From a virus, in IMG/VR virus record IMGVR_UViG_3300028800_000006, positions 1 to 64,000 of that record: a DNA stretch of 64,000 bases. One strand, 5' to 3'. The notes beneath the pieces were generated by a model. It worked only from the letters and a program-made list of their open reading frames with translations. It was not told where the DNA came from and searched no databases. Position numbers and translations under genes: made by a program. This document shows, in pieces, positions 2,266 through 55,838 of this stretch. Numbering within the stretch: the stretch's first letter is position 1; every line of letters starts with the position of its first letter.

Positions 2266-2618
2266 TGAGCCTTGATGTTGGTCATCTAGCGCTGCTCGGG
2301 CTGCTCAGCACCGCGCTGCACTGGCTGTTCGCCCGCGCCGAGATCACGCGCCCGCTGTGGTCTCGCGCCACCGGCTGGTTCGCGAAGCTCCTGGCCTGCC
2401 CAGCATGCTCAGGCTGGTGGATCGGGCTCGGGCTCGGAATCGGTGGCGTGCAGCCTGTGGCGGGCCCCTGGCGGCCCCTGGCGGCGATATTCAGCGGCCT
2501 CCTGGCCATCGTGCTGACGCCGGTGCTGGAGGCTGTGATGCTGTGGGGGCTAGAGCGGAGCGCAATCGGTGAGGAAGAGCCGGTCGACCCGAACGATCCT
2601 GACGGGCTGAATAGCTAG
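2265..2618 (+). CDS. DUF1360-like membrane protein
   Basis: Hydrophobic helices with LLACPACSGWWIG motif. Confidence 0.65.
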   Translation: MSLDVGHLALLGLLSTALHWLFARAEITRPLWSRATGWFAKLLACPACSGWWIGLGLGIGGVQPVAGPWRPLAAIFSGLLAIVLTPVLEAVMLWGLERSAIGEEEPVDPNDPDGLNS

Positions 2619-2872
2619 CGGGACAGCATCGCGGTCGCGGAGAGCGATCGAACGTCCTCAGCATCATCGGCGTGGTGGCCGTGGATCCACTCGGTCCCCT
2701 CCCTATCCACGCGGCACGTGATGCGCAGCCCTGACTCGGTCATCACGTCGAACTTCTCACGCACAGGTAGATCGCCGAAGGCCTGTCCAACTACAGTCGC
2801 CCGGCTCACCGTGAGCCGGTCACCCGTGTCCCACCACGCTACCGTGATCGGGTCGCCGACCTCCAGCATCAT
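2615..2872 (-). CDS. EGxxW-family small paralog 1
   Basis: VGDPITV...EGTEWIHGHHADDAEDVRSLSATAMLSR. Confidence 0.85.
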   Translation of the reverse strand: MMLEVGDPITVAWWDTGDRLTVSRATVVGQAFGDLPVREKFDVMTESGLRITCRVDREGTEWIHGHHADDAEDVRSLSATAMLSR

Positions 2873-3129
2873 CGCAGCAGCGCCACCTGCGCCTGCAGCG
2901 CCTTTGCGTCATCGGTGTTCCAGCCCCGCGCCCACATCTTGCCCTCGGCAGTCAGAAGCTCACGCCCATGAATGTACTTCCCTTCAGGATCATGCCCGTA
3001 CCACAGGAACGCGTCGTGAGCGCGCTCGCACGGGCCGCCAGCACGCACATGAACCATTTTGTTCATGTCAGTGATGACAATGATCTCGGTGCCGGGCAGC
3101 AGCGGCTTCGACGTGTCCGTTTTCGTCAT
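2869..3129 (-). CDS. EGxxW-family small paralog 2
   Basis: LPGTEIIV...EGKMWARGWNTDDAKALQAQVALLR; 4-nt gene overlaps. Confidence 0.85.
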   Translation of the reverse strand: MTKTDTSKPLLPGTEIIVITDMNKMVHVRAGGPCERAHDAFLWYGHDPEGKYIHGRELLTAEGKMWARGWNTDDAKALQAQVALLR

Positions 3130-3377
3130 GCCAGCAATCTAACACGAGCCTCTAAGGCCCGTGCGTCATCGGTGTCGTGGCCCCGGGCCCAGGTGATGCC
3201 TTCCAGGTGAAGGCCAAAATGGGACTCGTGCGCCCTCCAGTCTGCTGCGGGCAGTGCAACAACCGTAAACCACACCACTCCTGAATACGCCGCGACGTCA
3301 GCAACACGCGCAGGCACAACGCCCTGTCCACCGTCCGCCAACGTGACCTTCACCGTTACGGCATCGCCAACAGTCAC
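3126..3377 (-). CDS. EGxxW-family small paralog 3
   Basis: VGDAVTV...EGITWARGHDTDDARALEARVRLLA. Confidence 0.85.
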   Translation of the reverse strand: MTVGDAVTVKVTLADGGQGVVPARVADVAAYSGVVWFTVVALPAADWRAHESHFGLHLEGITWARGHDTDDARALEARVRLLA

Positions 3378-3652
3378 TCCGGCAGCTCTCCGCCGGCCTC
3401 GACGATCTCGTGTTCGAGCTGGGCGAGCGCCGTGCGTAGCGCATCGCGCAGCCCGAGCGCGAAGGGCAGCGACAGCGGATGGTGCTCGACCGCCAGGTGC
3501 CGTGGGCCTCCGTAGCGGTACGTGTAGGCTTTCAGCAGCGGCGGATGAATCCCCGGGTCATAGGCGCCATCGTCCGTGAGCCCAAGGCGCCGTGGCGCGT
3601 GGGTGAGCCCGCACAGCGGACAACCGAGACGTGTTCGTTCTACGATTGCCAT
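3374..3652 (-). CDS. Hypothetical protein with CPLC motif
   Basis: Coupled ORF inside the paralog cluster but lacking the family motif. Confidence 0.7.
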   Translation of the reverse strand: MAIVERTRLGCPLCGLTHAPRRLGLTDDGAYDPGIHPPLLKAYTYRYGGPRHLAVEHHPLSLPFALGLRDALRTALAQLEHEIVEAGGELPE

Positions 3653-3667
3653 GTGACCATATAGAGT

Positions 3668-3928
3668 CTAGCGGAGAAGAGCGTACTCGGCGCGCAGGGC
3701 CTGAAGATCCTCACCGCTATAGCGCGCCCACCAGACGCCTTCCATTCGGAGCCAGACTGGCGCCCAGCGCCGACCTCGATCACGAGCGCCGGCCCGCGCA
3801 TCGCGAACCTTCATCAGCTTCCCGCGCGGGTTGTGCCCCAACACCACACCAAGGCTAGGCGCGCTGCCTAGCAGAATGATCTTGCTGCCCTTCGGCAAGA
3901 ACCGCTGCCAGTTTGGTCGGCGTGCCAT
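3668..3928 (-). CDS. EGxxW-family small paralog 4
   Basis: LPKGSKIIL...EGVWWARYSGEDLQALRAEYALLR. Confidence 0.8.
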   Translation of the reverse strand: MARRPNWQRFLPKGSKIILLGSAPSLGVVLGHNPRGKLMKVRDARAGARDRGRRWAPVWLRMEGVWWARYSGEDLQALRAEYALLR

Positions 3929-3930
3929 TG

Positions 3931-4185
3931 CTAGTCTTTCAACAGTAGGCGCTCAGCGCGGAAGGCATTCGCTTCGTCTGTGTCCCAGCCCATCACCCAC
4001 AGCTTGCGGTAATCACGCCGCAAAAACGACATGGCGGCTCCGCCTCCTGAGCCAGGACGGAATTGAATCCTGCGCCCACCTGAAGGGCCGGTGATGCGGC
4101 CTTGCACCACACCAGCACGTGTCGCCACTGTGACCCTCATCCCCGCGTACACGAGCGGCAGATCTGGACGCCGAGGCCGCTTCAT
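3931..4185 (-). CDS. EGxxW-family small paralog 5 (divergent)
   Basis: YAGMRVTV...DYRKLWVMGWDTDEANAFRAERLLLKD. Confidence 0.8.
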   Translation of the reverse strand: MKRPRRPDLPLVYAGMRVTVATRAGVVQGRITGPSGGRRIQFRPGSGGGAAMSFLRRDYRKLWVMGWDTDEANAFRAERLLLKD

Positions 4186-4424
4186 GCCAGCAACGCCTGC
4201 TGAGCGCGCAGCATAGCCGCCTCCAATGTGCCTTCGAGGGCCCAGGTGACGCCATAGTCGCTGCGCAGCACGTGCCGAACAAGCCGGGGTAGGACGCGAA
4301 GGCGCACGTGGTCCCCTGCGCTTCCGGTCACCTGTGCTTCAGCCACCTCGGGTGGACCATGGGGTGCCGCCACCAGCAGCACCACGACCGGCACACCCCG
4401 CTTGATGTACGCTGCGCTCTTCAT
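4182..4424 (-). CDS. EGxxW-family small paralog 6 (divergent)
   Basis: IKRGVPVVV...DYGVTWALEGTLEAAMLRAQQALLA. Confidence 0.8.
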   Translation of the reverse strand: MKSAAYIKRGVPVVVLLVAAPHGPPEVAEAQVTGSAGDHVRLRVLPRLVRHVLRSDYGVTWALEGTLEAAMLRAQQALLA

Positions 4425-4675
4425 GCCAGCAACGCAACACGCGCTCGAAGCTCCAGCGCTTCGATGGTGTCCCAGCCGCGGACCCAGCTCCCGCCATTCC
4501 GCAGCAGCACCGCCTCAGATCGCCGTCCTGCCCGGAAGCTCTCACGCCATTCCACATGGGTGGGGCTGATTCGGACTGCTCGCGCTCGAATACAGTGCTC
4601 GATGCCAAGCATGTCCCACACGTGAAGCGTGATCCGCTCCCCGCGCCGCAATCGCTTCAGCCGCCTCGACTTCAC
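4421..4675 (-). CDS. EGxxW-family small paralog 7
   Basis: LRRGERITL...NGGSWVRGWDTIEALELRARVALLA. Confidence 0.8.
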   Translation of the reverse strand: MKSRRLKRLRRGERITLHVWDMLGIEHCIRARAVRISPTHVEWRESFRAGRRSEAVLLRNGGSWVRGWDTIEALELRARVALLA

Positions 4676-4708: not shown

Positions 4709-4960
4709 TCAAGCTGCCGCTGCGACCGCCCGAGCCACTGCACCGAAACGGAACGGCTCCGAGGCGCGCCGCGTCTTGTGCACGATAAGCATCAGCCGCC
4801 CCGCGCTCGGCTCCACTCGCCCCGACTCGTACCCCTGCAGGGTCTGCCACGGGATGCCGCAGTGCTTCGCGAACTCCTGCAGGGTCATCCCCATCTCGTC
4901 GCGCAGACGACGGATCTCGGCGCCGACCGCCGCAGAAGCCGTTTTGGTGTCGCCCGACAT
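4709..4960 (-). CDS. XRE-family helix-turn-helix regulator
   Basis: GAEIRRLRDEMGMTLQEFAKHCGIPWQTLQGYESGRVEP; TTGACA-N18-TACCTT lies 6 nt before ATG 4960. Confidence 0.9.
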   Translation of the reverse strand: MSGDTKTASAAVGAEIRRLRDEMGMTLQEFAKHCGIPWQTLQGYESGRVEPSAGRLMLIVHKTRRASEPFRFGAVARAVAAAA

Positions 4961-5049
4961 GATGGAAAGGTAGGGCACGACGCTCATTCATGTCAAGAGG
5001 ACGTGTCGGGTGGACGTCTCCCTGGCAATTCCACATCACCCAGCCCGAA

Positions 5050-5220
5050 GTGATATGGCACGGTCTTGGCTACGCGTACGCGTACGCGGGCGCGCACGAA
5101 AAGCGAATACGCACATTACTACACAGAATATATAGGTAGTATAGTAAGTATTACCTTATTGTGTGTGCGTGTGAGGATATTCCTATTCCTTGTAATTCTG
5201 TGATATGGAATCGGCCTGGA
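5050..5220. other. AT-rich intergenic island, candidate origin or control region
   Basis: Strongly AT-rich 5100-5210, (TACGCG)3 at 5071-5088, flanking imperfect direct repeats beginning GTGATATGG at 5050 and 5200. Confidence 0.4.
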
Positions 5221-5227
5221 GGTCACC

Positions 5228-6176: not shown

Positions 6177-6413
6177 GTGTCTTACGAACGTGACCAACGG
6201 AAGTCTCTGCTGGCGTTGCTTGCTCTGATCGTGCTGGCTGTCGTCATAGGGCTCAGCGCGCGAGTTGACTGCAGGACAGCAGAGGCAGCTCTGCAGCACG
6301 CTAATGAGAGGAACGCACAGCTTCAGCGGAGGCTCGATCGGTGCACGCTGGACCAGCAGCTCGACCGTGTGATCGAGCTGAACCATGTGATTCAGGTTCG
6401 GAGGATTGAATGA
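6177..6413 (+). CDS. Small membrane-anchored coiled-coil protein
   Basis: N-terminal hydrophobic helix then heptad-like region; overlaps next ATG. Confidence 0.65.
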   Translation: MSYERDQRKSLLALLALIVLAVVIGLSARVDCRTAEAALQHANERNAQLQRRLDRCTLDQQLDRVIELNHVIQVRRIE

Positions 6414-8134
6414 AACCGTTTGTCGTCTCCCCCGAGGTCTCCTTCCCGGCGAATGCAGCCACCTCCACCTTTGCCTATCTCGGCACACGCGGCAGCGGTA
6501 AGACCTTCGCGGCCGGCGTCATGGCGGAGGAGTTTCTTGCTCAACACGTGCAGGTGGTTGTTGTGGACTTGGTGGGGACGTGGTGGGCACTCCGCCTCAA
6601 CCACGACGGCAAGCGGCCCGGCTTCGATATCCCGGTCTTCGGCGGCATCCACGGTGATATCCCGCTCGCGCCCACCGCAGGTGGCCTCGTGGCGTCGCTC
6701 ATTGCCGAGCGCGGCATGTCGATGGTGCTCGACATCTCCGACTTCACGATCGGGCAGCAGCGCCGATTCGTCACCGACCTGGCGCACGACGTGTTCCAGC
6801 TCAAGAAGCGGAACCCGTCGCCTGTTCACTTCATCTTCGAGGAAGGCCACGAGGTGTTCCCGCAGTTCGTCGATGGCGCTGCTGCTCCGCTCGTTGGCGC
6901 CACCACGCGCATGTGGAAGATCGGCCGGAACTACGGCATCGGCGGCACGATCATCAGCCAGCGTGCCGCCGAGGTGAACAAGAGCGCGCTCAACCTCACC
7001 GATCGGATCATCACAGGCCAGCTCAAGGCGCCCGAGGACATCAAGCGCATCGATGGGTGGGCCAACTCGAATGGCGTGTCGGACGCGATGGTCAAGGAGC
7101 TGCCGAAGCTGCCGAAGGGCACGCTCATCGTGTGGGGGGAGACGGGTGCGGTTCGAACCGTGTTCAAGCCTAAGCTCACGTTCGACGCCTCGCGTACGCC
7201 AGACGGAACCATCAGTCGAAAGCGGCTCGCGCCGATCGATCTCGAAGCTGTGCGCACCGCAATGGCTGCAAGCGTGGAGGAGGCGCAGGCCAACGATCCG
7301 AAGGCACTGCGGGCGCGAATCACTGAACTGGAGAAGAAGCTGCGCGAGGTTCCAGCAGCGGCCCCAGGCAAGACGATCGAGAAGCCTGTGGTGAAGGAAT
7401 CTGACCTGAAGCGCGTGGAGGCGGCTGAGAAACGAACTGAAGCGCTAGCCGATCGCTGGCTAGCCAGCACGAATGAGCTGAAAGATGTTGTGCGAGCGCT
7501 GGCACGGACGGTAGCGGAGGCGATGACGTTGCGAACAGCACCGCCTGTAGCAGCACCACGACGCTTTGGCGATGGCATCAACACATTCAGGCCGCTTGGG
7601 AAGGAACAGACTCTGCAAGAGGCGTCATACACGCGTCAGATGCAGCAGTCTGGCGGCGTCGAGCACATTCCCGACAAGTGCCAACGCATGCTCGCGGCGC
7701 TCCGGCACGGCGAGGCGATGGGGATGAAGACGATGCCGTTCAAGTCTGTCGCACTCATCGCTGGAGTAGCGCCCACGTCTGGCACGACGAGCAATCGCAA
7801 GGGCCTTCTCACCAAAGGCGGATACATGACCACGCACGGCGATCAGGTACAACTCACAGACAAAGGCCGGGCCTATCCAATCGACGTGGAGATGCCGCCT
7901 ACTGAGCCGAAAGCACTGCTCGCCTATTGGAAGCGTGAGATCGGCACGGAGAAGATCGCCACGATGCTGGATGTGGTGGTCACGCGAGGCCAAGCGACGA
8001 GTGAAGAGTTAGCAGAAGCGGCGGGCATGGAGATGTCGGGGACATTCAGCAACTACAAGGGTGAGCTGACCCGCCGGGGTCTGATCATCAAACAGGGCAA
8101 CGCCTACGTGCCCGCAGAGGCATTCACACGATGA
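6410..8134 (+). CDS. HerA/FtsK-superfamily ATPase (DUF87-like) with coiled coil and C-terminal winged-helix-like domains
   Basis: Walker A GTRGSGKT, Walker B FIFEEGHE, GRNYGIG...SQR. Confidence 0.85.
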   Translation: MKPFVVSPEVSFPANAATSTFAYLGTRGSGKTFAAGVMAEEFLAQHVQVVVVDLVGTWWALRLNHDGKRPGFDIPVFGGIHGDIPLAPTAGGLVASLIAERGMSMVLDISDFTIGQQRRFVTDLAHDVFQLKKRNPSPVHFIFEEGHEVFPQFVDGAAAPLVGATTRMWKIGRNYGIGGTIISQRAAEVNKSALNLTDRIITGQLKAPEDIKRIDGWANSNGVSDAMVKELPKLPKGTLIVWGETGAVRTVFKPKLTFDASRTPDGTISRKRLAPIDLEAVRTAMAASVEEAQANDPKALRARITELEKKLREVPAAAPGKTIEKPVVKESDLKRVEAAEKRTEALADRWLASTNELKDVVRALARTVAEAMTLRTAPPVAAPRRFGDGINTFRPLGKEQTLQEASYTRQMQQSGGVEHIPDKCQRMLAALRHGEAMGMKTMPFKSVALIAGVAPTSGTTSNRKGLLTKGGYMTTHGDQVQLTDKGRAYPIDVEMPPTEPKALLAYWKREIGTEKIATMLDVVVTRGQATSEELAEAAGMEMSGTFSNYKGELTRRGLIIKQGNAYVPAEAFTR

Positions 8135-21735: not shown

Positions 21736-22386
21736 ATGGTAGCCGTCATTGACTTGACCGGTCATAGGTACGGGCGCCTGACTGTGCTAGAGCGCGCTGG
21801 CTCTATTCGGAATAAAGCACGCTGGCGCTGCGTGTGCGCTTGCGGGAAGACTGTTCTTTGCGACAGCAACAGCTTGCGCGAGAAGCACACCACATCCTGC
21901 GGCTGTCGCAGTCGTGAATCGGCACGTGAGCGCCTGCGATCTGCAATGACTCGTCATGGTGAGAACGCTGGAGGAGTACGAACACACGAGTACAAGACAT
22001 GGTGTCGAATGATTGCGCGCTGTGAAGACAAGGAGCGAAAACACTACGGCGCAAAGGGAATCGCTGTTCATCCTGCGTGGCGGTCAGACTTTCTTTGCTT
22101 CCTTGCCTATATCGGGCGTGCGCCGAGCAAGCACCACACGATCGACCGGATTGAAAACGCCAAGGGATACGAGCCCGGAAACGTTCGCTGGGCTACACAG
22201 AAGGAGCAGGGGAGAAACAAAACAAACAACCATCTGCTTACTGTCGGTGGAGAGACCGCGCCGCTCGTCGTTTGGGCTGAGCGTACAGGGCTGACGTTGG
22301 ATGCACTCAGCCACAGACTGCGGCTTGGCTGGTCTCCATTGCGGGCTGTTACAACGCCACGGAGGAGCTATGTTCGACGCAAATGA
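21736..22386 (+). CDS. HNH-type homing endonuclease
   Basis: DLTGHRYGRLTV, WRCVCACG, TTSCGC, TIDRIENAKGYEPGNVRWAT. Confidence 0.88.
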   Translation: MVAVIDLTGHRYGRLTVLERAGSIRNKARWRCVCACGKTVLCDSNSLREKHTTSCGCRSRESARERLRSAMTRHGENAGGVRTHEYKTWCRMIARCEDKERKHYGAKGIAVHPAWRSDFLCFLAYIGRAPSKHHTIDRIENAKGYEPGNVRWATQKEQGRNKTNNHLLTVGGETAPLVVWAERTGLTLDALSHRLRLGWSPLRAVTTPRRSYVRRK

Positions 22387-26326: not shown

Positions 26327-26845
26327 GTGCCCTCCCAGCTCTACATCGCCTGCATCGGCTCCCGCGCTACGCCGCCGCTCGTTCTGGACTGGATGCGCCA
26401 GGCCGGCGCCCTCCTCGTGCGGGCAGGCCACCGCATCATCTCTGGCAACGCGCCTGGGGCCGATCAAGCATGGGCTGCTGGGGGCAACACGGCGGACCCG
26501 ACGCAGGTGACGCTGTGCCTTCCGTGGGCCGGGTTCGAGCAGGCCACCATCCATCCGCTGAACGGCGTCAGCGTTCTCGGGCCGATGCAGACGGACAAGC
26601 GCTACTATGACGACGCTGCGGTTAACCATCCAGACTGGAATCGAATGACGCCAGGCGGGCAGCGGCTCCATGCGCGGAACGTGATGATCGTGGACCGATC
26701 GCATCTTGTGCTGGGCTGGGTCGATGGATCAACAGGCGGGACCGCGAGCGCGTTTCGGCTGGCGCGGAAGAAAGGGATTCCTGTGACGGCGGTACATGCT
26801 GATGATGACGTGATGACGGTGGTGAAGCGGATGGTGCGGACGTGA
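26327..26845 (+). CDS. SLOG/DprA-like nucleotide-binding protein
   Basis: IGSRATP, SGNAPGADQA, HARN, GGTASA. Confidence 0.8.
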   Translation: MPSQLYIACIGSRATPPLVLDWMRQAGALLVRAGHRIISGNAPGADQAWAAGGNTADPTQVTLCLPWAGFEQATIHPLNGVSVLGPMQTDKRYYDDAAVNHPDWNRMTPGGQRLHARNVMIVDRSHLVLGWVDGSTGGTASAFRLARKKGIPVTAVHADDDVMTVVKRMVRT

Positions 26846-40277: not shown

Positions 40278-40723
40278 TCACCCGTCAGCTCGGCGCCGGC
40301 TACGCGATCGTCCCCGTCCCGCCCGTGCCCGACTGGAACACGAGCGCTGGCGGCGGCCCCATCAGCCGGTCGTCGCAATCGTCTGTGCCAGCCGGCGCCG
40401 GCAACTACGTGTGGCGCAGCCCGCTCAACGTCGTGCGCGAGGCGGAGCCCGGCGCGGGCTGGTGGCAGGATCTCGCGGCCACGAAGATGTTCCTGCCCGA
40501 CGGCCGGCTCGTGGACGCGAAGCCGTTTGCCTACGACCAGTTCCGCGGCGGCCCGGACATCATCCAGCCGATCGTGACTCAGTCGTCTCGCCTGCTCTCG
40601 CCGTCGTTCGTGGCGATGTGCCTGGGCGCAGCCGCCGGGTACAAGCTGTCTCGCGACAATCACGTGCTGCACGCGGTCGGCGGCGCGATCGTCGGAGGCT
40701 TGCTCGGGCGCGTGTTCGGGTGA
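40274..40723 (+). CDS. Protein with C-terminal Gly-rich membrane helices
   Basis: FVAMCLGAAAGY...AVGGAIVGGLLG. Confidence 0.75.
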   Translation: MITRQLGAGYAIVPVPPVPDWNTSAGGGPISRSSQSSVPAGAGNYVWRSPLNVVREAEPGAGWWQDLAATKMFLPDGRLVDAKPFAYDQFRGGPDIIQPIVTQSSRLLSPSFVAMCLGAAAGYKLSRDNHVLHAVGGAIVGGLLGRVFG

Positions 40724-41067
40724 GCGCCGTGGCGGAGATTGTCACGGTCGTGTGTGACACCAAGGACGGACGTGCTACACGTGTCGAGCGGCGCATGCGC
40801 GACGTGCTTGGCGACGAGGGAATCGACTGGATTCTTGGATCGCACGATCCGAAAAGTACAGACGCTACGGCGCTCCTCGCAGCTAACGCGCTGGCCCGTG
40901 ACCGGCTGGTTGGCGAAGGCTTTACGGGAGCTACTGGCGCCGCTCTCCCGTTTTTGCCCGGACGGCCATACACCGCAGAGAGCGCAAGCACGAGATGCTG
41001 CGCCTGCGAAAGGTTGATGCCCGTGTCAGCCGGTGAGCACGTCACGGAGCCTGCCCATGCCACTTGA
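40720..41067 (+). CDS. EGxxW-family paralog 8 with C-terminal extension
   Basis: DEGIDWILGSHDPKSTDATALLAANAL. Confidence 0.75.
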   Translation: MSAVAEIVTVVCDTKDGRATRVERRMRDVLGDEGIDWILGSHDPKSTDATALLAANALARDRLVGEGFTGATGAALPFLPGRPYTAESASTRCCACERLMPVSAGEHVTEPAHAT

Positions 41068-42680: not shown

Positions 42681-42854
42681 TCATCGCCGCCAGTGAACCG
42701 GCCCGCCCATCCAACTGAACAGGATCACCAGCAGAACAATCAGCAGCACGACGTGCAGTAGGTTGTTCCCCCGCACCGCAGGCGGCCCGGCCCAGTAGCC
42801 TCCGCCCCAACCGGCAAACACCACGAGCAGGATGATGAGTAGAGGCCACGGCAT
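42681..42854 (-). CDS. DUF3309-like two-helix membrane protein
   Basis: LLIILLVVFAGWGGGYW...LLHVVLLIVLLVILF. Confidence 0.7.
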   Translation of the reverse strand: MPWPLLIILLVVFAGWGGGYWAGPPAVRGNNLLHVVLLIVLLVILFSWMGGPVHWRR

Positions 42855-43122
42855 GGACTCCAGGCTGAGTACGATGGTGCCGGTAAGCAAGTACACGTGG
42901 GTGGGGCTGACCGATTGGCCTGAAAAGCCGAACAGCACAGTGTGCTTATGTAGCAGCGCCGTTCATGGACGGGACGAACACGAGGGGATTCTGTGGATTC
43001 GTGGAGTGCACACCGAAGCCACTGAGGACGGCCGTGCGCTACTGGCCGCATACGCGCTGTCTGATTTGGAGGCGCCGCTCCTGCCGATCAGCGATCCGCG
43101 GCTTGCTTCAGCAGCTCTTTGA
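42853..43122 (+). CDS. EGxxW-family paralog 9 (start uncertain)
   Basis: HEGILWIRGVHTEATEDGRALLAAYAL. Confidence 0.7.
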   Translation: MDSRLSTMVPVSKYTWVGLTDWPEKPNSTVCLCSSAVHGRDEHEGILWIRGVHTEATEDGRALLAAYALSDLEAPLLPISDPRLASAAL

Positions 43123-43372
43123 TCGCTGCGTTCCCGAGCGCGCCGACGAACCGCTTCAGCCGGCCCTGCTTGTCCATCACGATCGTGGTCGGCGTGGCCT
43201 TCACCCCGAGCTTGTCGCCGAAGTGCGCGGCCTTGGTGTCCTGCTGCACGTCGTAGATGCCGATCGGGATCACGCGGCGATACGGCCCGGCCAGCTCCTT
43301 GAACCGCGGCAGGTACTCCTCGCAGGCGCCACAGCCGTGCATCGCGAAGACGAAGACTGCAGGGTTCGCCAC
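43088..43372 (-). CDS. Thioredoxin-like protein
   Basis: FAMHGCGAC, GVKATPT. Confidence 0.85.
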   Translation of the reverse strand: MANPAVFVFAMHGCGACEEYLPRFKELAGPYRRVIPIGIYDVQQDTKAAHFGDKLGVKATPTTIVMDKQGRLKRFVGALGNAAIKELLKQAADR

Positions 43373-43374
43373 GG

Positions 43375-43653
43375 CTACGGCTTCCGGCAAGCCTCGAACG
43401 ACCGCCCAGCGGCGCTCATGAGCTGGCGGCCGGCGAAGTAGAGCGCGCCCGCGCCAAGCAGCGACACGATGCCGGCCGCGCCGCGCCCCTTCAGCAGCTT
43501 GTACGTGCCGAAGAGCGCCACAGGCACGCTCGACAGACCTGTGACAGCGCCAGTGACGAGCAGAGGGCGAGCTTGCTCGGCGCACTCGATGTCGGTCGTG
43601 GACGGCGCGGCACCCAGGTAGTCGGAACCGCTCAGTGTGTAGATCTCGGCCAT
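43375..43653 (-). CDS. Small membrane protein
   Basis: MAEIYTLSGSDYLG leader, two hydrophobic helices flanked by Cys; TATCCT 6 nt before ATG. Confidence 0.7.
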   Translation of the reverse strand: MAEIYTLSGSDYLGAAPSTTDIECAEQARPLLVTGAVTGLSSVPVALFGTYKLLKGRGAAGIVSLLGAGALYFAGRQLMSAAGRSFEACRKP

Positions 43654-43717: not shown

Positions 43718-44866
43718 ATGCCGCGCATGCCGACCATTCACGTTCTCGCGCCGCACCACACGATCGCAAACGACGAGTACAGCCACTGCGCGTTCACCGG
43801 CAAGGCCCGCCGGTTCGCGGCGATGATGAAGCCATTCGGCTACACGGTGCACGAGTACAGCAACGCCGGCTCGCAGAGTGCTGCCGACGTGAAGCACGTG
43901 ATGTTGAACTCCGCCGAGTTTGCGGCGCACATCAAACCCGAGCACGAGAGCCCTGGCGCGCAGGCCAATCCGCACACGCCCGCTGGAGTGATCTTCCGGC
44001 AGCGCCTGTCGCGTGCACTGGCCGAGTACGCCAAGCCAGGCGACATCGTGGCCCACATCTGGACGTCGTACTGGGAACTCATTCGGGACTTCCCGCGACT
44101 GAACCACATCGAGACCGGCATCGGCTACCCCAACGACGGGATCGGCGCGTACCGCATCTTCGAGAGCTACGCGTGGATGCACTTTCATTGGGGGCGCTAC
44201 TGCTCACCGGGCGGAGTGGTGCCGATGACCCAGCAGAGCTACGACATCGACAAGAATCCAGCCTGCACGTGGGTGGTGCCGAACTACTACGACCCGGCTG
44301 ACTGGCCTTTCGTTGGCGAGCCGGAGAATTACGTGGCGTTCATGCATCGCTTCGTCGTCGACAAGGGCATCGAAATGCTGCGCGAGGTGATCAAGGCGTG
44401 GGACAAGAAGCATCCTGGCGACGGGATGAAGTTCGTGCTCGCCGGGATGGGAGGCTACGCGCAGTGGCTCGCGGCGGGGGATTTCACGCCGGCTGAGATG
44501 GCGCGTATCGACTACCGTGGCGTGGTGAACGGGAGAGCGCGGGCCGAGCTGGTCGGGAAGGCGCGGGCGATGTTGATGCCATCGATCTTCGTCGAGCCGT
44601 TCGGTGGGTCTGGCGTCGAGGCGCAGGTGACCGGGACACCGTTGATCGGCCCGGACTTCGGAGCCTTCACCGAGACGATCGAGGACGAGGCGACCGGGTT
44701 TCGCTGCCGCACGGTCGATGATTACGTGCAGGCGATCGAAGACGCGCCGAAACTGGTGCGTCCGTACATCTCACAGCGGGCACGGAAGCTCTACTCGTTG
44801 GAGGCGTGCGGCGTGAAGTACGACAAGATCTTCAAGCGGATCACGACACAGGCGGGCGTGCGGTGA
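43718..44866 (+). CDS. GT-B glycosyltransferase (family 4-like)
   Basis: DKG, EPFGGSGVEAQVTGTPLI, GAFTETI..TGF. Confidence 0.88.
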   Translation: MPRMPTIHVLAPHHTIANDEYSHCAFTGKARRFAAMMKPFGYTVHEYSNAGSQSAADVKHVMLNSAEFAAHIKPEHESPGAQANPHTPAGVIFRQRLSRALAEYAKPGDIVAHIWTSYWELIRDFPRLNHIETGIGYPNDGIGAYRIFESYAWMHFHWGRYCSPGGVVPMTQQSYDIDKNPACTWVVPNYYDPADWPFVGEPENYVAFMHRFVVDKGIEMLREVIKAWDKKHPGDGMKFVLAGMGGYAQWLAAGDFTPAEMARIDYRGVVNGRARAELVGKARAMLMPSIFVEPFGGSGVEAQVTGTPLIGPDFGAFTETIEDEATGFRCRTVDDYVQAIEDAPKLVRPYISQRARKLYSLEACGVKYDKIFKRITTQAGVR

Positions 44867-50895: not shown

Positions 50896-51389
50896 CAGCG
50901 TGGCTCCTTTTTCGCGCGTCGCCTCTGCAGCGCGCCATGATGCTCGTCGAACTCACGGCGGTTCGCGAACACATCTTTGCTCTTCCCGACCTTCGTCTGC
51001 AGCTCGGACACGAACGTGTTCCGCGAGATCTTGCAGGTGTTGTTCATCATGATGAGGCTACCAACGCAGTAGGGCGCAGCGTCCACCGCGGTCTCGAAGT
51101 CGGCGCCTTCCGTTTCGAGCTTGTTCACGGCCATGTGACAGGGGAACTTCCCATCAGCCATGACGATGTCCGTGATCTCGCTCGGGTGGCCGTGCGCGCC
51201 GATCCAGCCGGCAGGGGCAGCTCGGCGGAACGGGCAGTCACCGCACGGTTTGGTGGGATGCCCTGACTTCGACGAAGGCTCGAAGATCTGCGGCTCGTAG
51301 TCGAGGCAGTAGCAGCCGGGGATGGTGCACTTCTGGAAGAAGCCGCTCTCGTGCTCGTCTGGCGCGTGGCCACAGGTGCAGTCGGTCAT
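50895..51389 (-). CDS. DUF6283-like Cys-rich protein
   Basis: PCGDCPFRR, FPCH, CVGSL. Confidence 0.7.
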   Translation of the reverse strand: MTDCTCGHAPDEHESGFFQKCTIPGCYCLDYEPQIFEPSSKSGHPTKPCGDCPFRRAAPAGWIGAHGHPSEITDIVMADGKFPCHMAVNKLETEGADFETAVDAAPYCVGSLIMMNNTCKISRNTFVSELQTKVGKSKDVFANRREFDEHHGALQRRRAKKEPR

Positions 51390-51709
51390 CGCTTCGGCTC
51401 CGTCCGCTTGATGCACGCGTCGTTCAGCTCCCACATCTGGTCACTTCCGATCGGCCCCGCAGTGCCGTCCTTCCACGGGCTCTCTCCGACGAGGGCCGTC
51501 GCTGCGCTGAGCGCCTTCGCTTCGGGGCTGCCGACGATGAGATGTCCAGGCATCCAGCGCCGGCCCTCGTCAGTGATGATAAGCGTGCGCGTTGAAACAG
51601 ACGACGGACGCCCGTACGCCACGCGGAACAGATCTCCAGCGCGGCCGATGACATGGGCGTGCTTGATCTTGAGCCCGGTCGGAATCGTGATGGGGTCGCC
51701 GACGTTCAT
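51386..51709 (-). CDS. EGxxW-family paralog 10
   Basis: MNVGDPITI...DEGRRWMPGHLIVGSPEAKALSAATAL. Confidence 0.8.
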   Translation of the reverse strand: MNVGDPITIPTGLKIKHAHVIGRAGDLFRVAYGRPSSVSTRTLIITDEGRRWMPGHLIVGSPEAKALSAATALVGESPWKDGTAGPIGSDQMWELNDACIKRTEPKR

Positions 51710-52325: not shown

Positions 52326-52765
52326 GACGCCACCCCCGCCAAGCGAGCCTCGGCCGCCTCGGCACGCGCCAGCGCTTCCCCGAGCTGTCCCTGCAGCGAG
52401 CCGATCTTCGTCCTGGCCGCCTCATACTCCTTCTTGAGTGCCTCCAGCTCGGTGGCCAGGGTGATGCTGCGGCCTCGCCAGTAGGTGTTGTCCTTCTTCA
52501 CCGCGGCGACGCGCGTCTCGGCCAGGGCCAGCGCGGTCTCATACTGGGCAGGCAACAGCAGGAGGCTATCGAGCAGCCGCGTGAGCGCCTCGTGCCCGAG
52601 CCGAAAGGCGCAGTCCTCGCGGTGCCAGGCCCATGGGACGTCAGCGTCTATACCCACCACCGATGGGATGCGGCCGTCACAGCACGCGCCGTCGTTCCGG
52701 GTGCTCTCCACGGTGAGGGCGGCGAGCAGCTTCGTCAGCGCCTCCCGATCGGTTGAGGTGATCAT
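52322..52765 (-). CDS. Coiled-coil protein
   Basis: Coupled ORF, heptad-rich C-terminus. Confidence 0.65.
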   Translation of the reverse strand: MITSTDREALTKLLAALTVESTRNDGACCDGRIPSVVGIDADVPWAWHREDCAFRLGHEALTRLLDSLLLLPAQYETALALAETRVAAVKKDNTYWRGRSITLATELEALKKEYEAARTKIGSLQGQLGEALARAEAAEARLAGVAS

Positions 52766-53265
52766 CGCCGTGCTTCTTTCTGGGCAGCCTCGTATGCTGC
52801 ACGGAGCGCCTTGACGTCGGCGCTGTCCGGCGCGTGGTGGCCTCGAATCCAGGTGACGCCTTCGTCGCCGAGACGGAAGCCGCCACCACCACGCCCTGTG
52901 ATGGTGAGCCTGCCACTTCCTTCGGGAGAACCGTTCAGGTACGTGAGCGGCCCGCAGTACGCAGGCCCTTCGGGCTCGGTGTGGGGGCGTGCATCCAGTT
53001 CCTGCTCTGTGCAGAAGATGACCATCTTGGCAAGCTCGTGGCGAAGCTTGACCAAGCTCGGGTTGAACGTGAGCAAGAGCAGCCCGCTGGCTTGATGTGC
53101 CGCCTGTGCAAAGGCGGTAGCGCGGCGGTCGTCGGCCTCGCGCCGGTTCCGCACCTCATCCATCAGGCTGGCGGCGAGCTGCTTCACTTCGAGCTGCTCC
53201 TGCGTTTGGGCCTCGGAAACGCCCTTCTTGACGCCCTTCCGTTTCGCTTGCATCATGGGAGGCAC
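52762..53265 (-). CDS. EGxxW-family paralog 11 with helical N-terminal extension
   Basis: DEGVTWIRGHHAPDSADVKALRAAYEA. Confidence 0.78.
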   Translation of the reverse strand: MPPMMQAKRKGVKKGVSEAQTQEQLEVKQLAASLMDEVRNRREADDRRATAFAQAAHQASGLLLLTFNPSLVKLRHELAKMVIFCTEQELDARPHTEPEGPAYCGPLTYLNGSPEGSGRLTITGRGGGGFRLGDEGVTWIRGHHAPDSADVKALRAAYEAAQKEARR

Positions 53266-53266
53266 C

Positions 53267-53360
53267 CTAGCGCAAAATATATGTATTGCGCAAGATAAAG
53301 TTCGCTATAGCAAACTTTACGCTTTGCGTCGTTGACAGCCGGCGGCCGATCGGGCACCGT
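53267..53360. promoter_or_regulatory. AT-rich divergent promoter region
   Basis: AT-rich gap between divergent operons; TTGACA near 53332. Confidence 0.55.
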
Positions 53361-53367
53361 ATGAGGC

Positions 53368-53583
53368 ATGCCCAACTCAAGCGATTTTTCCCACAGCGAC
53401 GTAAATGGTGTTGTCTCCTATCTGAACCGTCCTGTCGCGGCGCGTGCGCGCCGCGGATGGACACCGGTTGATGGGGGACATCCCGCGGCCATCATGAAGG
53501 CCGTACGTGCAGCCATCTTCGACGTTCCGAACAACGCCAGCGCGGGAGATCTTCGCCGCGTGATCGTGGCGTATCTGACATGA
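53368..53583 (+). CDS. Hypothetical protein
   Basis: First ORF of the rightward operon. Confidence 0.55.
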   Translation: MPNSSDFSHSDVNGVVSYLNRPVAARARRGWTPVDGGHPAAIMKAVRAAIFDVPNNASAGDLRRVIVAYLT

Positions 53584-53755
53584 GCCCGCAGGCAATGAAG
53601 CCCACCCCGGAGATGCTTTCGGAGGCCGAACAGACCTGGGTCCGGGTCCTGGCCCAGGAGCTGTACGGACAGTCAGCCGCTGAGATCCAGACGGCCTTGA
53701 AGGACAAGCACCCGCCGCGGGTCATTGGCGCAGTCATCCGTGAGGCTGGCGGGCG

Positions 53756-53953
53756 GTGACGAAGGCCGAGGCGCGACGGAACATCTATAGGTGCCTTGCG
53801 TTGCTAACTGACCCCGCAGCCGGGCACGAGAACGACTTCTTGTACTCCGACCAGAAAGGCAACGAATACTCGGAGGCGGACACGAAACGACTGACAGAGG
53901 CGCTGGAGCACATCGTTGCCGGCTTCTACAGGAAAGCCAGCACGCTTCGATGA
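53756..53953 (+). CDS. Hypothetical protein
   Basis: Coupled ORF. Confidence 0.55.
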   Translation: MTKAEARRNIYRCLALLTDPAAGHENDFLYSDQKGNEYSEADTKRLTEALEHIVAGFYRKASTLR

Positions 53954-54393
53954 CCCTCCGCCGAGATAAAGACGTCGTCAACGACGCCTGTGTGAAGGCG
54001 CTCCGCATGGAGCCGCAGCTGGCCCAGAAGCTGTGCGAAGAGGCTCGCCTGCTCGCGCCGCGGTTCGTCCACCGAAAGTCTAAGGGTGACGTGGCCGAGT
54101 TCTCGCGCTCGCTCATCCGCCGCGGGCTCGGGTGGTCACACGAGCAGTCTGAGCTGATGGAAGCGACCGAGCTGAAGCCTAAGCGCGTCGGTGGCCTGAC
54201 GATGGAGCCTGCCGTGCATCGCCGCCTGACCGAGCTGGCCCAGCGGCACTTCGGTGGCGGTGTGGCCTCGGCCGCGCGGCACCTGCTGCGCCTGGGCTTG
54301 GGCATGAACGAAGGAGAGTCGCTGCGGCGCGAGGAGAAGTTCGCATCGTTGGCGGCAGCGATCCGCGAGGTGCGGGAGGCGCATGAGGGATGA
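53950..54393 (+). CDS. Hypothetical protein, possible ribbon-helix-helix DNA binder
   Basis: LTMEPAVHRRLTELAQRHFGGGVASAARHLL. Confidence 0.6.
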   Translation: MTLRRDKDVVNDACVKALRMEPQLAQKLCEEARLLAPRFVHRKSKGDVAEFSRSLIRRGLGWSHEQSELMEATELKPKRVGGLTMEPAVHRRLTELAQRHFGGGVASAARHLLRLGLGMNEGESLRREEKFASLAAAIREVREAHEG

Positions 54394-54539
54394 GCGCGTT
54401 GGTCAAAGGGGCGCCGCTGACAATGGTGGCGCTGGATCAGAACACGAAAGCAACGATACTGATCGACGCTGCCGTGTGCTTCGTTCCGACGTGCGGGCAC
54501 GACGGATTACTGTGGTTGGTGTTCCCGCACGTGCATTGA
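54390..54539 (+). CDS. Possible truncated EGxxW-family member (49 aa)
   Basis: MSALVKGAPLTMV...HDGLLW; lacks the terminal helix. Confidence 0.4.
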   Translation: MSALVKGAPLTMVALDQNTKATILIDAAVCFVPTCGHDGLLWLVFPHVH

Positions 54540-54543
54540 ACCG

Positions 54544-54780
54544 ATGAGCGAGCTGAAGCCAGGGGACGGAATAACCGTGATGGAGCACTGGCACATCAAC
54601 TACGCCACAGTCACGGACGTCTCCGCCGCCGATTTTAGTGCCGCCTACGTCAGCCTGCCTGGCTGGTCGTGCAAGCTAGGTTTCCAACTCGAAGGAACGC
54701 TGTGGATCCGTGGGCACCATGCAGATGGCTCAGACGATGTTCAGGCTCTGCGGGCCGCCTACTTATTGACCCGCCGCTAG
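54544..54780 (+). CDS. EGxxW-family paralog 12
   Basis: LKPGDGITV...LEGTLWIRGHHADGSDDVQALRAAYLL. Confidence 0.85.
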   Translation: MSELKPGDGITVMEHWHINYATVTDVSAADFSAAYVSLPGWSCKLGFQLEGTLWIRGHHADGSDDVQALRAAYLLTRR

Positions 54781-54790
54781 TTAACTGGCA
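54775..54790. promoter_or_regulatory. Operator copy 4 (CGCTAGTTAACTGGCA)
   Basis: Between a TTGACC -35 box and ATG 54802. Confidence 0.65.
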
Positions 54791-54801
54791 GCATCCTCTG
54801 C

Positions 54802-55065
54802 ATGCCCAAGCAGACCATCCCGGACTCGGTCAAGAAGGTCACAGACACCGTTCACGTGCAGAAGGCTGAGGTCACGCTGCCGATCGACGCGTTCCAGACC
54901 ATCTCGGTGCAGGACTACAAAGACGCGCTCGCGGTCATCCAGCTCGTGCGTGACTCCGCTCTGGCTGTGCTGGAAGTCGACGAGGACAACGCTGACGTCA
55001 CTGCCGTGGAGTACAAGCTGGTCGGTGGAGACGCGGCCGTGACGGTCACGCAGGTGAACACGTAG
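54802..55065 (+). CDS. Small acidic hypothetical protein
   Basis: High GC3 ORF right after the operator. Confidence 0.7.
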   Translation: MPKQTIPDSVKKVTDTVHVQKAEVTLPIDAFQTISVQDYKDALAVIQLVRDSALAVLEVDEDNADVTAVEYKLVGGDAAVTVTQVNT

Positions 55066-55069
55066 CTGC

Positions 55070-55303
55070 ATGGTTGCCATTGGGGGCAAGATTACGGTGG
55101 TCGCAGCCTCCGACTCCTCCTTCACGCTCGTAAAGGAAATTCTAGACATCTCCACAATCGGTGCATTCGTTGCTGGAGTGGGTGGGACACGCGTCTGGTA
55201 CCACCCGGAACATGAGGGTGTGCACTGGATTCACGGTAGCCACCTGCCTACGTCGTGCGAAGTGCAGGCGATGCTGGCCGCGCACAGGCTGGTGAGCGAA
55301 TGA
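55070..55303 (+). CDS. EGxxW-family paralog 13
   Basis: IGGKITV...HEGVHWIHGSHLPTSCEVQAMLAAHRL. Confidence 0.85.
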   Translation: MVAIGGKITVVAASDSSFTLVKEILDISTIGAFVAGVGGTRVWYHPEHEGVHWIHGSHLPTSCEVQAMLAAHRLVSE

Positions 55304-55560
55304 GTCTGCGCGTAGGAGACAAGGTGACGACGGTGGTTCCGGGTGTACCTGAAATAGGCACGCTGGTGAAACGCGTGACAGCTGTTCACGAGGACGCCTT
55401 TCAGGCCGCGTGGTATCCTGACCACGCGGCCAGTAGCCCAGGACCATCGTTCGGCTACCTTCTCGAAAACGAAGGCGTGCAGTGGATTTCTGGCGAACAC
55501 ACGGCAGGGTCTTCGGATGCGATAGCGCTGCTCGCAGCAAACGTACTGGTGCGCTCTTGA
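55300..55560 (+). CDS. EGxxW-family paralog 14
   Basis: LRVGDKVTT...NEGVQWISGEHTAGSSDAIALLAANVL. Confidence 0.85.
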   Translation: MSLRVGDKVTTVVPGVPEIGTLVKRVTAVHEDAFQAAWYPDHAASSPGPSFGYLLENEGVQWISGEHTAGSSDAIALLAANVLVRS

Positions 55561-55838
55561 TTGACATCTGCGTTGGGGACAAAGTTACGATCGTGCTCTC
55601 GAACTGGCCTTTAGTGGTCCACAAGTACGTGACGCGTGTTGATCCTGGCGGCGGGTTTGTCGTTGATCATGAAATGAACGAGCACCGAGATAACGAGGGT
55701 GTCGAGTGGATTCGTGGCCACCACGCAGGCAACTCTGATGACGTGCGCGCGTGCCTTGCTGCACGAGCGCTTGTGCGCGAGGACGCTGTGCCTCACCACC
55801 GCGATCCTGATGAGCTAACCTGGCTCGAACGCCAATGA
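55557..55838 (+). CDS. EGxxW-family paralog 15
   Basis: VGDKVTI...NEGVEWIRGHHAGNSDDVRACLAARAL. Confidence 0.85.
   Translation: MIDICVGDKVTIVLSNWPLVVHKYVTRVDPGGGFVVDHEMNEHRDNEGVEWIRGHHAGNSDDVRACLAARALVREDAVPHHRDPDELTWLERQ

Follow-up and report, generated by a model that had tools for sequence, protein, structure and literature searches.

The 102,927-bp genome of an uncultured soil virus (IMG/VR record IMGVR_UViG_3300028800_000006) harbors 19 deeply diverged copies of one family of small proteins, amounting to about 5% of its 103 kb. Fifteen of them lie within the window, by which we mean the whole 64,000-nucleotide stretch analyzed here, and four lie beyond it. The family members and the features beside them are listed below, with HMM E values in brackets.

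2615..2872, minus strand: family member, 85 aa, WIHGHH type, closes the leftward operon (6e-21)
2869..3129, minus strand: family member, 86 aa, short-loop WARGW type (7e-9)
3126..3377, minus strand: family member, 83 aa, WARGH type (7e-11)
3374..3652, minus strand: non-family 92-aa gene within the array (no family HMM match)
3668..3928, minus strand: family member, 86 aa, pI 11.8 (5e-9)
3931..4185, minus strand: family member, 84 aa, pI 11.6 (3e-9)
4180..4196: 17-bp direct repeat CTTCATGCCAGCAACGC at a gene junction, copy 1 (repeat family D2)
4182..4424, minus strand: most divergent family member, 80 aa (1.7e-6; AF2 pLDDT 91.4)
4419..4435: 17-bp direct repeat, copy 2, 100% identical to copy 1 (repeat family D2)
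4421..4675, minus strand: family member, 84 aa, pI 11.7, first family gene past the HTH gene (1.5e-9)
4709..4987, minus strand: Xre/Cro-type HTH regulator heading the leftward array operon (Pfam HTH_3, 6.8e-10; PHROG transcriptional regulators)
40720..41067, plus strand: family member, 115 aa, short barrel and Cys-containing C-terminal extension (2e-13)
42853..43122, plus strand: family member, 89 aa, singleton (1e-13)
51386..51709, minus strand: family member, 107 aa, ESPWK... C-terminal tail (3e-16)
52762..53265, minus strand: 167-aa protein, foreign N-terminal part of ~100 aa and C-terminal family domain (5e-16)
53950..54393, plus strand: 147-aa gene preceding the rightward array, ribbon-helix-helix-like by eye
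54390..54539, plus strand: 49-aa ORF, below HMM significance
54544..54780, plus strand: family member, 78 aa, modeled reference copy (7e-22)
54802..55065, plus strand: non-family acidic 87-aa gene within the array (no HMM match)
55070..55303, plus strand: family member, 77 aa (8e-19)
55300..55560, plus strand: family member, 86 aa, ATGA overlap (1e-19)
55557..55838, plus strand: family member, 93 aa (2e-24)
55835..56701, plus strand: group-1 glycosyltransferase (GT1), translationally coupled to the array (Pfam Glyco_trans_1_4, 4.8e-9)
56681..57403, minus strand: GT25-like protein (phrog_24091; Atlas score 0.97 to Glyco_transf_25 clusters; no Pfam match)
Genome 99023-99265: family copy outside the window (HMM from 15 ORFs)
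Genome 99262-99498: family copy outside the window (HMM from 15 ORFs)
Genome 99495-99746: family copy outside the window (HMM from 15 ORFs)
Genome 100480-100686: family copy outside the window, truncated (HMM from 15 ORFs)

A first-pass annotation had grouped 15 ORFs of the window as paralogs on the basis of a shared C-terminal motif. All 15 are present, carry the motif and belong to one family: an HMM built from them recovered precisely these 15 in the window and four more outside it. With a second HMM, built from the 19 copies and their homologs and controlled with five shuffled six-frame sets, 19 of 19 copies scored between 1.7e-6 and 2e-24, the next-ranked hit at 0.075 and the best shuffled sequence at 1.0. 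The 54390 ORF, which had been offered as a possible stub, was undetected by either HMM at E<=1; its resemblance, read by eye (GAPLTMV ... HDGLLWL), would possibly make it a decayed copy. In keeping with the earlier reading that no named family is recognizable, searches of Pfam, PHROGs, NCBIfam, PADLOC and PDB sequences returned no match to an enzyme or any other family, and tblastn against 50,697 phage records gave no family match. When 1.84 billion proteins were searched with the profile, 696 clusters emerged; the members that could be traced originate from metagenomes of soil, rhizosphere and groundwater. The genes encode single-domain proteins of ~80 residues, and the family is old, clade-specific and absent from the catalogues.

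A conservation profile of 223 non-redundant family sequences showed conserved positions in strand 1 (G8 86%, D9 68%, V/I11 97%, T12 93%) and in the C-terminal motif (E50 96%, G51 96%, W54 99%, R56 81%, G57 97%, H58 69% with W in 19%, H59 88%, S63 74%, A68 95%, L75 96%). Conservation acts at the protein level, as had been proposed: just 39% of identical motif residues are encoded by the same codon, and DNA repeats within the array reach 30 nt at most. The intervening 40-50 residues had been described as unrelated; they are partly conserved (V24 81%, G31 56%), and in the models the same topology is retained even by the most divergent copy. Aromatic residues are conserved at W54, H/W58 and F/W34, and the polar conservation of E50, R56 and H59 goes beyond the usual need of a scaffold. 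Such polar residues might belong to an active site or a metal-binding site, although the H-H pair is absent from the short-loop subfamily.

AlphaFold (AF2) models of a typical copy (54544, pLDDT 90.3) and of the most divergent one (4182) showed one topology, a five-strand barrel with a 3-10 turn, capped by a helix at the C terminus, although the models drew on alignments of 19-26 sequences and the common alignment imposes part of this agreement. In the 54544 model, the strands span residues 9-14, 17-26, 33-38, 41-46 and 54-56 and the helix residues 64-77. The top structural matches were the MRG701 chromo-barrel (Z 7.6, rmsd 2.1 Å, 64 of 71 residues), the Shuguo PWWP domain (Z 7.2) and the MRG15 chromo-barrel (Z 7.1), followed by many Tudor domains at Z about 6, including the PcrA/UvrD C-terminal domain (CTD) and CarD; all of them stay below Z 8, which is only moderate, and are of a generic kind among small barrels. 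The predicted fold is an SH3-type barrel of the chromo-barrel/Tudor/PWWP type with a helix cap, which bears out the initial guess of an SH3/KOW-like barrel. Chromo-like cores are five-strand SH3 barrels in which a C-terminal helix cap is frequent (PMC5906684).

On these models, the constant motif runs from strand 5 (W-I-R) through a Gly turn and an H-H loop to the Ser/Asp-x-x-Glu helix cap and the ALxAAxxL helix, and together with strand 1 (GDxVTV) it forms the invariant half of one domain. Strands 2-4 and their loops, which correspond to the supposedly unrelated middle, vary among paralogs in sequence and length. Since the models give one fold, the C-terminal motif is part of a single domain of ~80 residues and no separate docking tag, and the constant docking module on unrelated bodies that had been envisaged is not supported. 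The same annotation placed the motif on different N-termini in 40720, 42853 and 52762; this stands for 52762, the only one of the three with a truly foreign extension (about 100 aa), and fails in that all three keep a strand-1-like start. The 52762 protein, which aligns over HMM positions 40-79 and whose gene opens a leftward operon, had no match in Pfam or PHROG. Natural two-domain fusions of neighboring copies also occur (P0009, P0033, P0067).

Each paralog has a separate ortholog in related viruses. The ortholog dN/dS of 0.0-0.47 is comparable to that of neighboring genes and gives no arms-race signature at the ortholog level; the paralogs are old and their orthologs are under purifying selection. 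In the close relative L013, dN/dS is 0.47 for 2615 (over aligned codons), 0.18 for 3126 (98.8% identity), 0.02 for 3668 and 0.43 for 3931 (94% identity), and the 4421 ortholog is 100% identical. Among the other copies, 2869 (dN/dS 0.20) has a 98.8% identical counterpart in P0072, 51386 is identical to P0039 and shares 48% identity with P0107, and 55070 is 82% identical to P0003, which is present on 14 contigs. Copy number varies from one in genome G001 and eight in G002 to 19 in G000, and the HTH-adjacent array holds one to seven copies among relatives. The 17-bp repeat encodes ...ALLA, the stop and the next ATG on the minus strand, and L013 lacks the 4182 gene through a deletion exactly between the two junction repeats; recombination at the conserved gene junction adds or removes entire gene units. 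This turnover of gene content among close relatives fits an accessory arsenal.

The arrangement in coupled arrays plus singletons, noted at first sight, holds, and translational coupling is confirmed by 4-nt ATGA/GTGA start/stop overlaps at ten junctions (2869/2872, 3126/3129, 4182/4185, 4421/4424, 40720/40723, 51706/51709, 52762/52765, 55300/55303, 55557/55560 and 55835/55838). The 40720 gene is GTGA-coupled to an upstream gene read by eye as a membrane protein. One array operon is headed by the Xre-type HTH gene, which also adjoins the array in L004, L008, L013 and G001, and another follows the 147-aa gene and extends into the glycosyltransferase gene. A simple promoter scan gave no convincing promoter, and the reading of these as early operons is drawn only from gene order and AT-rich divergent spacers. 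Non-family neighbors are likewise kept. The 3374-3652 gene (no match in Pfam or PHROG) occurs in all relatives checked, namely L013 (100% aa), L004, L008 and G001; orthologs of the 147-aa gene (also no match in Pfam or PHROG) immediately precede family arrays in L009, L011, L012, L017 and L022 (=G002); and 54802 has an ortholog at the same position in G002. The singleton 42853 is followed in this virus by a thioredoxin-like gene (43088-43585), the ortholog of which adjoins a seven-copy family array in L005.

Beside the main array lie genes for GT1, GT25-like and GT2-like proteins and for a methyltransferase. The 55557 stop and the GT1 start overlap, and this coupling and position are kept in G002. 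In a relative, the ortholog of the GT25-like protein (P0122; residues 1-240 58% identical to 56681-57403) carries a C-terminal family domain. This recurrent link to glycosyltransferase genes is the sole functional lead.

We favor, at about even chances, a role as non-enzymatic binding modules, in which an old helix-capped barrel family presents a variable face for each ligand. The proteins would act stoichiometrically as readers or adaptors, each copy's different face would contact a different host or viral ligand, and the conserved polar and aromatic positions T12, E50, W54, R56, H/W58 and H59 would either build the folding core or form a single shared site. Because charge is mixed across the copies (pI 4.6-11.8), several kinds of ligand are suggested. 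The strong polar conservation, with its hint of a catalytic or metal site, and the ortholog dN/dS, which gives no sign of diversifying selection, speak against this role.

A different, rather unlikely possibility is that the copies are nucleic-acid-binding or transcription-associated regulators that reset gene expression during infection through contacts with host RNA polymerase, RNA or DNA. The prokaryotic matches agree with this, including the C-terminal Tudor domain of PcrA/UvrD (Z 6.4), the UvrD CTD in complex with the RNAP lobe (Z 5.6-5.7), CarD (Z 5.7-6.1) and the NusG KOW domain (Z 5.4), as does the Shuguo PWWP match, a structure with ssDNA; however, many eukaryotic Tudor and chromo domains tie at the same Z, and the KOW, CarD and Tudor families gave no Pfam match. 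The basic copies 3668, 3931, 4182 and 4421 (pI 10-11.8, Arg/Lys-rich N-termini) would suit nucleic acid, whereas the majority of copies are acidic (pI 4.6-6.9). DNA-binding regulator genes open the operons and the T4 early LSm-like proteins provide a precedent for small phage barrels tied to RNA (PMC12152347), yet nineteen different copies are hard to square with one polymerase target.

Somewhat less probable still is that strand 1, strand 5 and the helix, which make up the conserved half, form a shared interface, either for one viral partner, such as the 92-aa or 147-aa neighbors, the glycosyltransferase or the HerA/TrwB-like ATPase, or for mixed Sm/LSm-like oligomers. The unusually strong polar conservation of this half over the 223 sequences, the persistence of 3374-3652 and 53950-54393 beside arrays in all relatives checked, the two-domain fusions and the GT25-like fusion are consistent with this, and a TraI translocation-signal domain matches both models (Z 6.4-6.5) in a virus that encodes a TrwB/HerA-like ATPase. 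However, much of the constant motif can be explained, from sequence only, as a helix N-cap, helix packing face and core Trp, the short-loop subfamily does without the H-H pair, and an obligate multi-paralog assembly is disfavored because close relatives lose single copies and keep the rest, and a single-copy relative exists. Virion-associated accessory proteins (decoration, packaged proteins or glycosylation substrates) are improbable: the putative membrane protein coupled to 40720, similarly read flanking genes and the glycosyltransferase and methyltransferase genes beside the main array would suit them, but 17 of 19 copies lie away from structural genes, in operons that contain regulators and small genes of unknown function, relatives with genomes of similar size carry anywhere from 1 to 19 copies, and the sequences read contain no signal peptides or membrane segments.

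This virus is another case of a large phage that carries a set of tiny, predicted barrel proteins with a putative function. The closest fold is that of the chromo-barrel, Tudor and PWWP domains ('Royal family', Pfam clan CL0049), which share the five-strand SH3-type barrel, the 3-10 turn before strand 5 and the capping helix, as well as conserved aromatic positions (W54, H/W58 and F/W34 in the virus family). The likeness is by predicted fold alone: the virus proteins are single-domain, cytoplasmic and present in 19 copies, lack a sequence-profile match to any of those families, and their EGxxWIRGHHxxDSxE is no known chromo or Tudor signature. The CarD N-terminal, UvrD/PcrA C-terminal and NusG KOW domains are SH3-type barrels from prokaryotes that resemble the family in size and in their GDxV-like first strand (Z 5.4-6.4), but they lack the conserved capping helix and WIRGHH, are parts of larger proteins and gave no Pfam match. 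In T4, the early proteins GoF, MotB.1 and Frd.2 were united by a predicted small-barrel fold despite dissimilar sequences (Kim et al. 2025, PMC12152347); these are likewise small phage proteins of no known function with very dissimilar sequences, although T4 has three, with an N-terminal LSm-like motif, and the present virus has 19, with a C-terminal helix and a strong common motif. Bacillus phage G, with about 35 zinc-ribbon copies arising by lineage-specific expansion (Iyer et al. 2021, PMC7824862), also shows a tiny domain multiplied in a single phage genome, from a different protein family; compared with such expansions, the copies described here are both arrayed and dispersed, have orthologs paralog by paralog and are linked to glycosyltransferase genes.

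An HMM built from the 15 motif-bearing ORFs of the first-pass annotation recovered the same 15 ORFs in the window, each with the motif, as well as four copies outside it. The summed length of these 19 genes is about 5.2 kb, which is 5% of the 102,927-bp IMG/VR virus record; the window covers its first 64 kb. With an HMM of the 19 copies and their homologs, all 19 matched at E 1.7e-6 to 2e-24 and the next match was at 0.075, while the best score in five shuffled six-frame sets used as the null was E 1.0. A possible stub copy proposed at 54390 was not retained, as it is a 49-aa ORF without HMM detection. Chance ORFs in GC-rich DNA were ruled out by the HMM values (E 1e-6 to 1e-24 versus 1.0 for shuffled sequence) and by ortholog dN/dS below 0.5. 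A DNA-level repeat or regulatory element behind the motif was ruled out by codon use and repeat length: identical motif residues use the same codon in only 39% of cases and DNA repeats within the array are no longer than 30 nt, which bears out the proposal that conservation acts at the protein level. The family is real, uncatalogued, and clade-specific.

Family copies, array loci, and the adjoining gene cluster (genome coordinates)
4987 to 2615, (-), leftward operon: HTH gene 4709-4987, then family copies 4421, 4182, 3931, and 3668, the non-family 92-aa gene 3374-3652, and family copies 3126, 2869, and 2615
40720 and 42853, family copies outside the three array loci
51386 and 52762, family copies inside a leftward operon
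53950 onward, (+), rightward operon: 53950 (147 aa), stub, family copy 54544, non-family 54802 (87 aa), family copies 55070, 55300, and 55557, then glycosyltransferase 55835
55835-58788, cluster beside the main array: GT1, GT25-like, SAM-methyltransferase, and weak GT2-like genes
99023-99746 plus truncated copy 100480, rightward run; on the circle, the leftward operon is only about 6 kb away
99023-99265, rightward, family copy beyond the window, HMM match
99262-99498, rightward, family copy beyond the window, HMM match
99495-99746, rightward, family copy beyond the window, HMM match
100480-100686 (L001:4481-4687), truncated family copy beyond the window, stopping just after GHHDADE

Most junctions are 4-nt ATGA/GTGA overlaps, which confirms the earlier description of largely translationally coupled arrays. 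The truncated copy at 100480-100686 ends past the GHH loop without the capping helix and is GTGA-coupled to an upstream 168-aa gene. An Xre-type HTH gene (4709-4987) is the first gene of the operon containing the leftward array. In five other loci, arrays are directly preceded by the 147-aa gene (53950-54393), whose product looks ribbon-helix-helix-like by eye, while in four relatives the array contains the 92-aa gene (3374-3652). Both genes are kept in every relative checked, and either could be a partner or regulator of the family. Two divergent, AT-rich spacers lie at 4988-5227 and 53266-53367; a scan for consensus promoters and terminators gave nothing useful, and a tRNA scan found none. 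A second GT1 gene is present at 43718-44866, about 600 bp past the singleton 42853.

A 127-bp direct terminal repeat is present at positions 1-127 of the window and 102801-102927 of the genome, and 127 bp is a common assembler k-mer length. Because the closely related metagenome locus L013 (contig Ga0265342_10000112) is colinear across both record ends, this repeat is probably an assembly overlap and the record a circular assembly, so that the array at 2.6-4.7 kb would adjoin those at 99-100.7 kb.

The motif had been described as a constant tag on unrelated bodies; however, the models of 54544 and 4182 show one shared domain. The AlphaFold2 model of 54544, based on the 19-copy alignment (pLDDT 90.3), contains strands at residues 9-14, 17-26, 33-38, 41-46, and 54-56; residues 47-49 make a 3-10 turn and residues 64-77 a helix. 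Copy 4182, the most divergent, showed the same element order when modeled with AlphaFold2 from a 26-row alignment (pLDDT 91.4). In the frame of the 54544 model, the N-terminal GDxVTV forms strand 1, E50-G51 is positioned after the 3-10 turn, W54-I55-R56 forms strand 5, G57-H58-H59 forms a turn, and A68-L69-x-A71-A72-x-x-L75 occupies a single helix face, while D62-S63-x-E65 look like the helix N-cap. In SH3-type barrels, strand 1 normally pairs with strand 5. Since the motif covers strand 5, the turn, and the helix, and GDxVTV covers strand 1, the constant parts are predicted to be one half of a single small domain, with strands 2-4 and their loops as the variable part.

Among 223 non-redundant sequences, the most conserved positions were W54 (99%), G57 (97%), E50, G51, and L75 (96% each), A68 (95%), T12 (93%), H59 (88%), G8 (86%), and R56 (81%). 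Besides W54, aromatic positions include position 58 (H 69%, W 19%) and position 34 (F/W 47%). A short-loop subfamily with WARGW-D/N-T, which includes most leftward-array copies, is three residues shorter and lacks the H-H pair. The predicted pI ranges from 4.6 to 11.8 across copies, and crude regex classing did not separate the two loop subfamilies cleanly into acidic and basic.

An exhaustive structural search with the 4182 model matched the MRG701 chromo-barrel (Z 7.6, rmsd 2.1 Å, 64 residues), the Shuguo PWWP domain (Z 7.2), and MRG15 (Z 7.1), the matches spanning 64-67 residues including the helix. Scores of about Z 6 came from many Tudor domains, among them CarD and the C-terminal one of PcrA/UvrD, as well as from the TraI translocation-signal domain. 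The 54544 model gave largely the same matches, with Z up to 6.4. These moderate Z values point to a fold class only, namely an SH3-type barrel with a C-terminal helix cap. The earlier statement that no named family was recognized agrees with the database searches: no Pfam family matched 10 members at E ≤ 1, no PDB sequence matched the family profile at E ≤ 10, PHROGs and PADLOC gave no match (best PHROGs E 0.041), and NCBIfam gave one chance match only (E 0.018, 1 of 19 members). Foldseek against PDB and BFVD returned weak generic small-barrel matches only (best E 0.054 and 0.0088, respectively), and ESM Atlas returned only unnamed viral clusters, at 0.87.

A profile search of 1.84 billion cluster representatives matched 696 proteins at E ≤ 1e-3, 47 of them at E ≤ 1e-10. 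Most are 70-110 aa long with the signature D-E-G-[VI]-T-W-I-R-G-H-H-x-x-D-S-x-E-x-x-A-L-L-A-A-x-A-L, and none of 10 relatives looked up carries a functional name. A JGI metagenome scan identified 17 loci, mostly JGI records by contig name and one from Hainich groundwater; the JGI sample series are probably from soil and rhizosphere. Two to ten tandem copies are present in 16 of the 17 loci, and the other, L007, is a 1.6-kb fragment carrying a single copy. Two related IMG/VR genomes, G001 (89 kb, one family copy) and G002 (94.5 kb, complete, eight copies), are from the same virus clade (DNA polymerase identity 67-74%). The 696 relatives appear confined to one clade of ~90-100-kb viruses, probably from soil. 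The strict motif was absent from 185,579 prokaryote genomes, one per species, and therefore gives no host clue; the first pattern of an IMG/VR pattern scan also returned none.

The virus is far from any cultured phage, and tblastn of the family against 50,697 phage records gave no match at E ≤ 1, nor did blastn. Its family-A DNA polymerase (22301-24814) is fused to a uracil-DNA-glycosylase domain and is at best 28% identical to phage records. The only packaging-like gene recognized encodes a HerA/FtsK/TrwB-type ATPase (6410-8134), which is also the sole packaging-category match, to a PHROG labeled terminase large subunit; no portal or capsid families were found among the ORFs put through Pfam or PHROGs. 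A RecD/PIF1-like helicase (26842-28455) has an N-terminal DUF6011 match (E 6e-11).

Comparison among genomes indicated that the copies are ancient. For 11 of the 19, the match in another genome is markedly better than that to any paralog of the same genome, and 2869, 3126, 3668, 3931, and 4421 are 94-100% identical to copies in L013 or to the homologous protein P0072. For most of the other eight, foreign-copy and own-paralog scores differ little. Between paralogs, alignments cover only the final ~30 residues or stay at ≤ 35%. Because cross-genome orthologs exceed paralogs in similarity, the duplications are old. In a FastTree tree of 51 copies, read for pairing and not for duplication order, orthologs from this genome and L013 pair. 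The dN/dS against L013 is 0.0-0.47 for family genes and 0.0-0.43 for neighboring genes, showing purifying selection and, at this depth, nothing that suggests an arms race.

Copy number changes through recombination at the conserved junction. The 4182 gene is missing from L013, where 239-243 bp were lost exactly between two identical 17-bp repeats (CTTCATGCCAGCAACGC), which correspond to the conserved '...ALLA-stop/ATG' junction on the coding strand. The rightward run has three copies and one truncated copy here but one plus three different copies in L013, which carries three full, non-orthologous copies at the position of 100480-100686. The array beside the HTH gene contains one copy in G001, three to four in L008, four in L004, six in L013, and seven here, where counts for the L loci, including L005, refer to the retrieved loci and not whole contigs. 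Additional arrays lie between the 304-aa gene and the ATPase gene in L004 and L008, but not in this genome. In L005, a seven-copy array flanks the ortholog of the thioredoxin-like gene that adjoins singleton 42853 here (43088-43585, minus strand).

Translational coupling links the main rightward array to the GT1 glycosyltransferase gene (55835). The GT25-like gene of the adjoining cluster has an Atlas match at 0.97 and a match to phrog_24091, without a Pfam match. G002 has the same neighborhood of array, GT1, and GT25-like genes, and a third relative encodes a GT25-like protein with a C-terminal family domain (P0122, 326 aa). Two-domain natural fusions of the family domain are also found in the homologs P0009, P0033, and P0067. 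A separate search for longer, fused family forms returned none, which is weak evidence, as the 326-aa P0122 exists.

The observation made in the first-pass annotation is therefore confirmed and its interpretation partly supported. We favor, at about even chances, the reading that the copies are non-enzymatic binding modules, each with its own ligand by virtue of its variable strands 2-4. That they bind nucleic acid or RNA polymerase appears unlikely; the RNA polymerase-binding Tudor-like domains of CarD and UvrD/PcrA show fold likeness (Z 5.6-6.4), but these values are tied with unrelated Tudor domains, and the family has no Pfam match to CarD_TRCF_RID or the UvrD C-terminal domain. A shared docking or oligomerization face is somewhat less likely still, although the idea is kept in play by how strongly polar residues of the constant half are conserved. 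More doubtful again is a version in which the invariant half (strand 1, strand 5, and helix; T12, E50, W54, R56, H/W58, and H59) would serve all copies as a docking or reader site while the variable half would pick targets, making the 19 paralogs combinatorial adaptors to one shared viral machine, maybe the glycosyl-/methyl-transferase cluster because of the fusion and the conserved neighborhood. If true, this would be a virus-encoded reader/adaptor repertoire on a chromo-barrel-like fold. A virion-associated role is the least probable.

Large phages repeatedly carry multi-copy sets of tiny β-barrels without catalogue name or experimental explanation. This family provides a clean case, with the signature EGxxWIRGHHxxDSxExxALLAAxAL, confident models, clear orthologs, and 1 to 19 copies, as well as a visible unit-loss mechanism and a fusion and neighborhood pointing to glycosyltransferases. 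If the copies are target-specific binders with one shared site, they would show an adaptor repertoire built from one small scaffold, which could serve binder engineering. Should their role be just structural or redundant, the importance would be modest.

Among known systems, acr-aca operons combine small accessory genes with a small HTH/RHH autoregulator and a proven inhibitor of a defence system; here the HTH gene 4709-4987 also shares the operon, but stands first. The earlier suggestion of an SH3/KOW-like barrel is supported by the SH3-type fold of the models. Fold likeness to KOW domains (PF00467) of NusG/Spt5 is Z 5.1-5.4, but no Pfam KOW match was found in 10 members, and the sole KOW match (E 0.035, below cut-off) lies in an extra C-terminal domain of the homolog P0143. 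With the Royal family (Tudor, chromo-barrel, and PWWP; clan CL0049), the family shares the barrel and cap topology in two predicted models, but without a sequence-profile match to any member family; the chromo-like core is a five-strand SH3-fold barrel, often with a C-terminal helix cap (PMC5906684). The T4 proteins GoF, MotB.1, and Frd.2 contain an N-terminal LSm-like fold motif common to Tevenvirinae proteins (PMC12152347), whereas in both models here there is no N-terminal helix and the sole helix is C-terminal; none of the 50 best structural matches was an LSm or Hfq chain either, though this absence alone says little. As a phenomenon, however, the family resembles both the T4 LSm-like early proteins (PMC12152347) and the ~35 zinc ribbons of phage G, a lineage-specific expansion (PMC7824862).
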